Source: a virus
Taxonomy: Duplodnaviria > Heunggongvirae > Uroviricota > Caudoviricetes
Virus record (IMG/VR): IMGVR_UViG_3300029184_000014
Span: 1 to 14,988 of that record
Length of the DNA: 14,988 nucleotides
Reading direction: 5' to 3' (one strand)
Made by a program: the position numbers. Below, piece by piece: positions 3,001 to 6,000 of this stretch (its first letter is position 1; each line of letters begins with the position of its first letter).

Positions 3001-6000
3001 TACTTCAAGATTGACGTTCTTGATATGGAAGTAAGTGCAGGGCCAGGCGTCATTAACCGTGAGTTCGTTGAAGTTTTGCGATCGGTTGAGTACTCCCATG
3101 ATGATGCGCGTCACATGTTTGATGGCCGCAAAGCAGAAAACATCCGCATCATTAACGTGCGTGGCGACAGCATGTCAGGAACGATCGAACCAGGTGACCT
3201 GCTGTTCGTCGATATCAGCGTCAAATCGTTCGACGGCGATGGGATTTATGCGTTCCTCTACGACGAAACCGCTCATGTAAAACGTCTGCAAATGATGAAG
3301 GATAAGCTGCTGGTTATCTCTGATAACAAGAGCTACTCACCGTGGGACCCGATCGAGAAAGACGAGATGAACCGAGTGTTCATCTTCGGGAAAGTCATCG
3401 GGAGCATGCCGCAGACGTACAGGAAGCATGGATAAAAATCTTGCTATTTATATTCATGAATACCTGCCCCCTGATTAACTCCACGCATCACTTGATATAA
3501 GGCACCAAAAATGAGTAATGATGACAAATCTGTAAGTGATGAAGTATCTGATTTTCATAATAAAGTGAAAAATATTACAACCGCTCAATTTTCTGCATAT
3601 TTAAAGCATGTTGGGGCAAATCATAACTGCTTATCTTGCGGTAAGGCTGAACTTATAGCAGTGCAAGACTGGCATTGGGATAAATTCAACAGCAAGGAAG
3701 GGAAAACAGATCTTAATAATATTGAAAAATATACTGTTTTAAGGCTTTACAAGGTTGATGCTCCACATAGTAATGAGCAATGGAATATGACAAAAAAAAA
3801 CTTAATGGATTATGAGTTTAGAGTGATATGCAAACATTGCGGATTCGTTACAAGTTATTTGGCATGGCTTGTTTTCTACTGGCTAAAGAATAACGAAGTT
3901 GACCAATAATGACATCCGGGCCAGAATAAATGAATCCTTTTGATAATATTGCTCCTCTTTTCCCTGAGGGGGATGATAGAAATAACCATAGAAACGGTGG
4001 TAGTGATGGTGGGGGGAATGGCATGCTCGAGGTCAGAGTTGCAAAACTTGAAGCCGACGTTGAAAACATCAAGATAAACTTAGCGGAAACTCGCGCGGAT
4101 GTGAGAGAGCTGACAAAAATTACCTCTTCTATAAAAACTGATGTTTCTACGATACTTCAAAAACTTGTAGATATTGACGAAAAGTTATCTCATAAAGCAA
4201 GTAAGGATTTTGTCGAAGTAAAAACAGGTAATTTAAAGGCTTGGATGCTCGGAATTCTTCTCTTATCCGTTGCAATGCCAGTCATAACTTTGCTCGTAAA
4301 TTTATACATGAAAAAACCATAACCCGGCCACCGCGCCGGGTTTTCTTCCCCCCTTCCCCAACACACTCAACGTCTAAAAAACAACCACAATCTCACTTCA
4401 GCTATCGCTACGCGATGCAAACCACAAAATAAATTCTTTTTGCTATCAATGATTTAATAACCAATCGCATCAAGCAATAACAATACGTATTGATATAGCC
4501 AATAGCAATAGCTATTATCATTCCATCGCAACGACACAGCGATGGGGCAACCACCAGTTCACCCGCTTCACCGTTGCGATGACCGCTTAGATCCGCAGCT
4601 TGAATTTCAGCAGGTTCCGGGGAGTGCGAGGGGTGAAACGGACGTGTGAACGTCGGTGTGACCATCTGGAATCAACTCAACACTTCATACCTCAGTCGCT
4701 TCACCGAGGCGGCTTAGTTATGACTAACGGCGGCCATCCACCGCCAGATTAAGCGCAGAAGTCTTCATATGTTCAGCAGCCCAGCTTACGGGCAGGAGTT
4801 TTTATGGTTCATCAACATTACGGCACACAGACCGTCAATCGCGGTGCCGTCCGGCCAGGAATGCTGGTTAAGCACAAAGATGGCACCTGGACAGCATCAG
4901 CTAATTTACGCGGACGGCTATATCTGCATCGCGGCATCGAGCGCACTTATACCCGTGATTTGCTCGTGGAAGTTTTTCTCGACGGACGCGGTAACGGCCT
5001 GAATCGCTAATCCCCTTTCCTGTTTTCCTAATCAGCCTGGCATTTCGCGGGCGATATTTTCACAGCCATTTTCAGGAGTTCAGCCATGAACGCTTATTAC
5101 ATTCAGGATCGTCTTGAGGCTCAGAGCTGGGCGCGTCACTACCAGCAGATCGCCCGTGAAGAGAAAGAGGCAGAACTGGCAGACGACATGGAAAAAGGCC
5201 TGCCCCAGCACCTGTTTGAATCGCTATGCATCGATCATTTGCAACGCCACGGGGCCAGCAAAAAAGCCATTACCCGTGCGTTTGATGACGATGTTGAGTT
5301 TCAGGAACGCATGGCAGAACACATCCGGTACATGGTTGAAACTATTGCCCGCCACCAGGTTGATATTGATTCAGAGGTATAAAACGGATGAGTACAGCAC
5401 TCGCAACGCTGGCAGGGAAGCTGGCTGAACGTGTCGGCATGGATTCTGTCGACCCACAGGAACTGATCACCACTCTTCGCCAGACGGCATTTAAAGGTGA
5501 TGCCAGCGATGCGCAGTTCATCGCATTGTTGATCGTCGCCAACCAGTACGGCCTTAATCCGTGGACGAAAGAAATTTACGCCTTCCCTGATAAGCAGAAC
5601 GGCATCGTTCCGGTGGTGGGCGTTGATGGCTGGTCCCGCATCATCAATGAAAACCAGCAGTTTGATGGCATGGACTTTGAGCAGGACAATGAATCCTGTA
5701 CATGCCGGATTTACCGCAAGGACCGTAATCATCCGATCTGCGTTACCGAGTGGATGGATGAATGCCGCCGCGAACCATTCAAAACCCGCGAAGGCAGAGA
5801 AATCACCGGACCGTGGCAGTCGCATCCCAAACGGATGTTACGGCATAAAGCCATGATTCAGTGTGCCCGTCTGGCCTTCGGATTTGCTGGTATCTATGAC
5901 AAGGATGAAGCCGAGCGCATTGTCGAAAATACTGCATACACTGCAGAACGTCAGCCGGAACGCGACATCACTCCGGTTAACGATGAAACCATGCAGGAGA

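Follow-up and report, generated by a model that had tools for sequence, protein, structure and literature searches.

To our knowledge, the characterised occupants of the slot between cI and PL (lambda rexAB, HK022 nun, 933W stk and BTP1 bstA) all have exclusion functions. Dual-start genes for phage membrane proteins include the lambda S107/S105 holin-antiholin and P22 sieB/esc. PBSX-dependent lysis and vesicle release require the membrane protein XhlA as well as the holin XhlB and the endolysin XlyA (PMC5589764). We analysed 14,988 nucleotides of a virus of the Caudoviricetes (IMG/VR record IMGVR_UViG_3300029184_000014, positions 1 to 14,988; the whole stretch is hereafter the window), in which two small genes, gene 1 and gene 2, fill the cI-PL slot. 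The pair is a member of a conserved, modular and unannotated two-gene family with a swappable partner, and is not a one-off. The reading we favour, to which we give somewhat less than an even chance, is that the two genes form a phage-exclusion module of two components, expressed in the lysogen and lying as cargo in the cI-PL (rexAB) slot. Such a module would be RexA/RexB-like in its working yet unrelated in sequence.

Gene 1 (3511-3909, + strand, 132 aa) and the long form of gene 2 (3930-4322, +, 130 aa) were both recovered as open reading frames (ORFs) and as RefSeq coding sequences, with exactly the lengths given in an initial annotation of this DNA. RefSeq labels both 'hypothetical protein' in 10 E. 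coli genomes. The initial annotation had also described the pair as more AT-rich than cI and the recombination genes, and base composition agreed with this: GC content was 33.3% in gene 1 and 38.2% in gene 2, against 49.4% in cI and 52% in bet and exo, and third-position GC was 30-33% in the pair against 53-61% in the comparison genes. At 33-38% GC between flanks of 49-52%, the pair is foreign in composition. Its proposed placement in the rexAB slot was upheld, as it lies between cI and OL/PL, co-oriented with cI and without a preceding terminator; none was reported when the 75-bp spacer from cI to gene 1 (3436-3510, +) was scanned for terminators and promoters. The strong terminator predicted after gene 2 was found as a hairpin and U-tract (4321-4347, +) that ends the cI operon. 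It consists of an 8-bp GC-rich hairpin (4321-4342) and UUUUCUU, with a folding free energy of -14.5 kcal/mol (z = -3.6), and 0/200 shuffled sequences folded as well. Being palindromic, it could act in both directions.

One claim of the initial annotation did not stand, that of a separate promoter for the pair (TGaTATAAG at 3493-3501), likened to lambda PLIT. We rejected it because the sigma-70 scan did not report it, TATAAG lacks the conserved final T of a -10 element, and the AAGG at 3499-3502 is more plausibly part of a translation signal. This AAGG stands 8 nt 5' of the gene 1 ATG, with a Shine-Dalgarno (SD) duplex of -3.8 kcal/mol, and probably serves gene 1 as its ribosome-binding site instead of forming part of a promoter. 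The same scan gave no convincing promoter upstream of gene 1. Scans of both window proteins against Pfam, NCBIfam and PADLOC returned nothing significant, and no near-identical DNA was present among the sequenced phages of INPHARED. We found no published description of the pair in the literature searched, which did not cover the Brenes and Laub 2025 prophage screen, and neither protein was present, by accession or by sequence string, in the DefensePredictor paper or its 12 supplementary files.

A search of 5.8 billion proteins recovered 87 gene 2 relatives across Enterobacterales, all unnamed; one of them carries the label 'putative coiled-coil protein SlyX'. With a family profile hidden Markov model, gene 2 homologues were found in about 80 loci (82 fetched, E < 1e-12) from IMG/VR and GTDB. 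Nearly all of these loci have a co-oriented upstream partner gene of 94-173 aa, whose stop lies -20 to +7 nt from the gene 2 start in most loci and +20 nt in the window. The contexts of three gene 2 relatives were all alike, running from a repressor through a gene of 110-140 aa and the gene 2 homologue to a kil/recombination operon. Upstream of the partner, HTH_3 was detected in 23/37 unique ORFs and Peptidase_S24 in 12/37, and precomputed Pfam contexts agreed in placing a repressor there. The module lies beside repressors of several types, namely S24 repressors, short HTH-only ones, a lambda-like cI in HK544 and the VT1-Sakai cI. In phage HK544, where the annotation describes cI as lambda-repressor-like, a homologue of the module stands in the place of lambda rexAB. 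The Stx1 phage VT1-Sakai carries it as ECs2991/ECs2992 (our H0053), and directly after the gene 2 homologue its depositors annotated a 'terminator for pRM transcript'.

The window allele occurs in 10/5426 complete E. coli genomes and the VT1-Sakai allele in 93/5426, mostly O157:H7. Homologues extend to Salmonella, Klebsiella, Enterobacter, Citrobacter, Serratia, Yersinia and more distant Proteobacteria. Upstream of a few gene 2 homologues, Arc/Mnt-type, KilA-N or DUF6246 proteins are encoded instead of a cI-type repressor, so the module may also occupy immI-like or other regulatory regions. Several variants have, between gene 2 and PL, a small ORF of 64-74 aa (...KRKAVGNVIHKG.LRDAAE.VRKG) convergent to gene 2, at 6730-6924 in locus L003, 6410-6616 in L007, 4954-5178 in L097 and 4930-5136 in L098, all on the - strand. 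It is 32-66% identical between variants and absent from the window (no tblastn match); it may represent an optional third component, such as a self-immunity protein made in the lytic cycle.

Clustering resolved the partners into three unrelated families, and the HK544 type brings the total to at least four. They are the zinc-ribbon family of gene 1 (two CxxC knuckles, phrog_4293), a Cys-free family of 132-173 aa (phrog_5893), a small family of 94-105 aa (phrog_4231) and the HK544/VT1-Sakai type of 93 aa. None of these families matched Pfam or PADLOC, and no DNA-binding Pfam domain was found in any. The PADLOC scan of gene 2 homologues and alternative partners was likewise without significant matches, apart from coiled-coil noise in one homologue.

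A small, tightly coupled pair with the variable gene upstream and start/stop overlap in most loci, in which candidate antitoxin families are shuffled round a constant membrane protein, would also suit an addiction or stress module that resembles toxin-antitoxin systems. Gene 2, with its XhlA-like, lysis-associated core, would then be a small membrane toxin and the partner its inhibitor, acting through the gene 2 N-terminal peptide; the pair would stabilise the prophage or tie host killing to lost expression of the repressor operon, and defence would be secondary. We consider this rather improbable. A type II system is disfavoured by the lack of an own promoter in the sigma-70 scan and of a DNA-binding antitoxin domain in Pfam, the pair is found strictly in prophage immunity regions and is not scattered over plasmids and chromosomes, and the conserved internal start of gene 2 described below would yield a form beyond the inhibitor's hold.

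The gene 1 protein is a zinc-ribbon protein (phrog_4293), predicted to be cytoplasmic, with an N-terminal helical region and two CxxC knuckles round a variable insert. The two CxxC pairs from which the initial annotation proposed a zinc ribbon are present as C40-x-x-C43 (CLSCGK; 3628-3639, +) and C107-x-x-C110 (CKHCG; 3829-3840, +), and the zinc-ribbon assignment gains from the invariance of all four Cys across 60 family members. G111, which is nearly invariant, W124 and an N-terminal helix ITxxxFxxFL are also common to these members, and in the AlphaFold2 (AF2) model of gene 1 (pLDDT 86.5) strands flank both knuckles. A word-indexed search found only 3 relatives, whereas an exhaustive profile search (E <= 0.001), for which the profile was a related 9-sequence alignment, brought the number of cluster representatives to 569; most of them have 90-165 aa and align end to end with the profile. 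The family has no Pfam family and no fold match in the PDB. Sub-threshold Pfam matches among the 60 members were to Zn_Ribbon_TF (7/60), RUBY_RBDX (6/60) and also CpXC; at E <= 0.01 the window gene 1 had no zinc-ribbon Pfam match, and no member reached a gathering score. With its two CxxC knuckles and four invariant Cys, gene 1 resembles TFIIB/TFIIS-type and rubredoxin-like zinc ribbons, and TFIIS-type ribbons were among its insignificant BFVD matches. It differs from these proteins in that a variable insert of 60 residues lies between its knuckles and the conserved helix ITxxxFxxFL comes before them.

Five distant gene 1 homologues were sampled (P0113, P0127, P0117, P0137 and P0210). A repressor lay upstream on the contig in 3/5 (P0113, P0137 and P0210), the other two contigs being short, and the next gene encoded a coiled-coil, single-transmembrane (TM) protein in 5/5, often with a Pro-rich tail. 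The window and P0113 pairs are collinear homologues at 31% identity for gene 1 and 23% for gene 2, so the pairing is old. The gene 2 homologue paired with P0113 (4377-4931, +, in L097-L099) has a (Pro-Ala)n repeat after the TM helix; the repeat count varies between strains from about 6 to 13, giving a periplasmic tail of variable length. If the two genes were AT-rich filler between cI and PL, non-functional or mis-annotated, their purely hypothetical annotation and the weak ribosome-binding site at the long-form start of gene 2 (-2.5 kcal/mol) would be accounted for. But homologues throughout Enterobacterales and beyond retain the invariant Cys and core residues although synonymous changes are abundant, gene order is conserved and gene 1 has a confident AF2 model. 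The conservation data effectively refute this explanation, to which we attach almost no probability.

Gene 2 encodes a predicted tail-anchored coiled-coil membrane protein (3930-4322, +; phrog_3556/phrog_12602) with an XhlA-like core. From the N-terminus it has a partner-specific peptide, MNPFDNIAPLFPE (3930-3968, +), and a Gly run, GGSDGGGNG (3996-4022, +), whose codons include the GGTGGGGGG run and lie 5' of an internal ATG at 4023. The invariant Met32 and conserved core MLEVRVAKLEADVENIK follow (4023-4073, +), and the core MLEARVAKLEADVENIK is almost invariant across the family (consensus MLEaRVAKLEADVENIK). Residues ~33-90 (4026-4199, +) form a coiled coil of ~8 heptads with hydrophobic a/d positions and an unbroken register, and the C-terminal TM helix WMLGILLLSVAMPVITLLVNLYM (4242-4310, +) is followed only by KKP. 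The sole hydrophobic segment is this helix, whose most hydrophobic 19-mer, WMLGILLLSVAMPVITLLV, scores 2.40 on the Kyte-Doolittle scale. The Gly-rich N-terminal part, coiled coil and C-terminal TM helix read from the sequence at the outset are thus all present, as judged by heptad register and hydropathy. Across the family, gene 2 is a mosaic: besides a Gly run, the near-invariant core and the coiled coil, it has a variable N-peptide and TM helices of at least four types. Pairwise codon differences in the core were 3243 synonymous and 1296 non-synonymous, which places it under protein-level selection.

The core also relates gene 2 to XhlA. In hhalign, gene 2 alignment A3 matched a Geobacillus XhlA with a probability of 96.5% (E = 7.5e-10) over 31 coiled-coil columns, with the core LEaRVAKLEADVE aligned to LEQRVAKLEADVD of the PF10779 protein. 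This reference scores 68.8 bits to PF10779 and lies in a prophage between a tail gene and a holin and amidase. Short gene 2 members had sub-threshold XhlA (PF10779) matches of 18.8 bits (L024) and 17.2 bits (L090), against a gathering score of 34.7 bits.

A tail anchor with a head on a flexible Gly tether, in a slot expressed in the lysogen, would also suit superinfection exclusion at DNA entry, whereby the anchored coiled coil holds the head under the inner membrane and blocks or binds incoming DNA or ejected proteins and leaves the cell alive. Zinc ribbons are often nucleic-acid binders, and the gene 1 family has the weak zinc-ribbon Pfam matches given above; the Pro-rich periplasmic tail after the TM helix in many distant homologues could reach the periplasmic injection machinery. 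In the window, however, the KKP that ends gene 2 leaves nothing facing the periplasm. The partner families other than the zinc ribbon have no nucleic-acid-binding signature, and no similarity of the SieA, SieB, Imm or Cor type was found in PHROGs or PADLOC. We regard this explanation as unlikely, if still worth weighing.

The N-peptide of gene 2 follows the partner gene. N-peptide similarity correlated with partner similarity (Spearman 0.23, p = 6e-7) but not with how alike the gene 2 bodies were (-0.04), and N-peptides were more alike within a partner class than between classes (permutation p = 5e-4). The motif FDxxN[IV]xxLFP is found in the N-peptides of the window, L003 and L097, which are the gene 2 homologues with close gene 1 relatives, and it is retained although identity drops to 31% in gene 1 and 23% in gene 2; N-peptides with other zinc-ribbon partners are DN[IV]xPF-like. 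From these patterns we read the N-peptide as a putative docking peptide for the partner, held on a Gly tether.

Gene 2 also appears to contain a second start. The Gly codons before Met32 spell an SD sequence, GGA GGT or GGG GGG (in the window GGT GGG GGG AAT GGC, 5' of the internal ATG), with a mean duplex energy to the anti-SD of -10.3 kcal/mol across the family and -9.3 kcal/mol in the window. When Gly codons were resampled synonymously, the energy was -8.09 +/- 0.39 and 0/200 resamples reached the observed internal SD. At the start of the long form, in comparison, the SD averages -5.2 kcal/mol in the family and -2.5 in the window. The 99-aa short form that would begin at Met32 is a frequent database gene call among gene 2 relatives, and the long/short layout is also seen in the distant relative L105. 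The conserved internal SD and the invariant Met32 together suggest two gene 2 isoforms, only one of which would be able to hold the partner.

The initial annotation had taken the slot for a hotspot of cargo genes, and this was supported by other E. coli genomes, in which a cro-cI-PL backbone ~89% identical to that of the window carries different cargo. Its alternative contents are a DUF6932 gene with a gene for a 310-aa protein (PADLOC candidate PDC-M63AB), genes for a 353-aa protein and an ASCH protein (PADLOC candidate PDC-M11AB), a DUF6414 gene, a 126-aa ORF, or nothing. As one backbone carries PADLOC candidates, other ORFs or nothing, the slot is a cargo hotspot. PDC-M63 (A+B) and PDC-M11 (A+B) are two-gene cargos in exactly the slot of our pair, but their proteins are unrelated to those of the window.

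A slot that is empty or filled with unrelated cargo on the same backbone implies that the pair is dispensable for the phage cycle, which argues against a role in the life cycle of the prophage, such as tuning induction or the lysis-lysogeny switch, as lambda RexA/RexB are reported to do, or priming or timing lysis with the holin. The module also lies away from the lysis cassette and in the orientation of cI, and would thus be expressed in the lysogen, at a stage when lysis has to be avoided; partner diversity of this kind is more typical of conflict systems. A life-cycle role would explain why the module is tightly tied to repressor genes of several types, in Enterobacterales and beyond, and the dual-start layout resembles that of the lambda S holin/antiholin. 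The homologous core, moreover, would have an XhlA-like lysis-accessory role (PMC5589764). On balance we hold such a role to be improbable.

The general idea of the initial annotation, an exclusion or abortive-infection module with gene 1 as candidate sensor and gene 2 as candidate membrane effector, is a reasonable one. If the pair is a phage-exclusion module, as we favour, it would be transcribed with cI from PRM/PRE, with transcription stopping at the hairpin at 4321-4347. The gene 2 product would be an XhlA-like, tail-anchored coiled coil that oligomerises in the inner membrane. In the long isoform, the N-terminal peptide on its flexible Gly linker would dock the cytoplasmic zinc-ribbon protein of gene 1, and the short isoform, begun at the invariant internal Met, would be made without the docking peptide. 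The zinc-ribbon head may be the swappable specificity element, recognising a component of the infecting phage. Gene 2 would supply the constant output, either membrane permeabilisation (abortive infection, as for RexA/RexB) or a head held at the site of DNA entry.

Several points weigh against this reading. The pair resembles neither Rex protein, as the initial annotation had noted: hhalign gave a probability of 2.8% for a 60-sequence gene 1 alignment against lambda RexA and of 0.3% for gene 2 against lambda RexB. In PADLOC-DB v2.0.0, gene 1 had 0 matches and gene 2 only coiled-coil noise (PbeC 0.0028, LmuB 0.022). Neither protein had significant similarity to solved structures, and a PDB sequence search with the gene 1 and gene 2 family profiles gave only noise. 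The alternative cargos of the slot are themselves only 'candidate' defence systems. Similarity to XhlA is confined to the coiled coil, and the Pfam scan of the window gene 2 listed no XhlA match at E <= 1, below threshold; for these two reasons we call the protein XhlA-like and not a member of XhlA. The link between N-peptide and partner could in part be due to the two lying next to each other, recombination having its breakpoints within the conserved core, and not to binding. SD-like Gly runs could be translational pause sites, and a short isoform that was intrinsically lytic would escape control by the partner.

If the pair is an exclusion system, it would represent a new and common family among the defences that lambdoid prophages give to their hosts, and one absent from PADLOC. 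Its membrane core is constant while the heads are swapped, its putative docking peptide tracks the head, and its internal start is conserved; through these three features it would make a tractable model for the diversification of specificity in small defence modules whose output stays the same. It would also link XhlA, a Gram-positive lysis-cassette family, to lysogen-expressed functions in Gram-negative phages. Practical bearings lie in phage therapy, in the typing of Shiga toxin-producing E. coli (STEC) and other Enterobacterales, and in the interpretation of results with HK544, a widely used test phage. A broader proposal, which we consider doubtful, is that there is a widespread class of prophage immunity-region modules in which an XhlA-like, two-isoform 'socket' accepts plug-in sensors of at least four folds through a co-evolving docking peptide and turns phage sensing into holin-like membrane failure. 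Were this true, a component of lysis cassettes would have been repurposed as a programmable abortive-infection effector, in a class with members in HK544, in the E. coli O157:H7 Sakai Stx1 prophage and elsewhere.

The lambdoid prophage containing the window is integrated at tRNA-Thr beside proA in E. coli, and the + strand of the window is the PL direction. One 70-kb record of it (L002, NZ_AP023208.1, 'plasmid' pMTY18781-3) holds, besides the complete prophage, the tRNA-Thr, proA and proB genes of the chromosome, which suggests a mis-assembly or an excised circular chromosomal segment and not a true plasmid. On the - strand lie P (121-822), O (819-1838), a YdaT-domain gene in the cII position (1835-2380; PF06254, E = 9e-30) and a cro/YdaS-like gene in the cro position (2405-2638), divergent from cI; a YdaS-like and YdaT pairing also accompanies most of the loci that carry the module. 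The sigma-70 scan gave a PRM-like promoter, TTGACC-17-TAAATT (2707-2735, +), ahead of the operon's first gene, a cI-type repressor with HTH_3 and Peptidase_S24 domains in Pfam (2743-3435, +). Judged from the spacing, with a predicted transcription start at or next to the cI ATG, the cI message would be leaderless as in lambda.

The downstream edge of the cargo slot is an OL operator-like palindrome and PL-like promoter (4474-4518, +); the promoter, TTGATA-17-TATTAT (10/12), is at 4490-4518 and has operator-like repeats close by. It is followed on the + strand by kil (from 4804), gam, bet, exo and a gene for a DndB/DGQHR-domain protein (7002-8066, +; PF14072, E = 4e-46), which thus lies in the early left operon after exo and might have a DNA-modification-related or anti-defence role in the phage. 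The holin, lysozyme and Rz-like genes are ~8 kb off, beyond the replication and nin region. No N-like antiterminator ORF is present between PL and kil (region 4345-4803), where RefSeq annotates none, and related backbones have the same N-less gap. A put-like structured RNA in this N-less leader was considered and is unsupported: the ~280-nt PL leader had no Rfam match and was not unusually structured (z = -1.4), and an Rfam scan of 2300-5200 gave zero matches.

Two further prophage systems were compared and set aside as unrelated to the pair: Tai/Ati of phi80, reported in the same paper as HK544, in which Tai lies upstream of the packaging module, and HepS of Gifsy-1. Like XhlA, gene 2 encodes a short phage protein with a coiled coil and a C-terminal TM helix. 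Unlike XhlA, it lies after cI in the immunity region and not in a holin/endolysin cassette, it has in addition a putative N-terminal docking peptide, a Gly run and a dedicated partner gene, and it occurs in Gram-negative lambdoid prophages. With the dual-start genes of lambda and P22 it has in common a single frame that, from its conserved Met and selected SD, apparently has two starts and gives long and short membrane proteins differing at the N-terminus. Its predicted forms, however, differ by ~31 residues that seem to bind another protein, and a scan of gene 2 against PHROGs gave no similarity to either S or SieB. Like RexA/RexB, the pair follows cI in the same orientation, ahead of a terminator and OL/PL, with the gene for a soluble protein first and that for a membrane protein second. 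RexA, however, is a 279-aa protein with no zinc ribbon, whereas gene 1 encodes a 132-aa zinc-ribbon protein; RexB is a polytopic protein of 144 aa with about four TM segments, whereas gene 2 combines a coiled coil with a single C-terminal TM helix. The pair also differs from rexAB in having no PLIT-like internal promoter in the sigma-70 scan, and in an upstream partner that is swappable among unrelated families.

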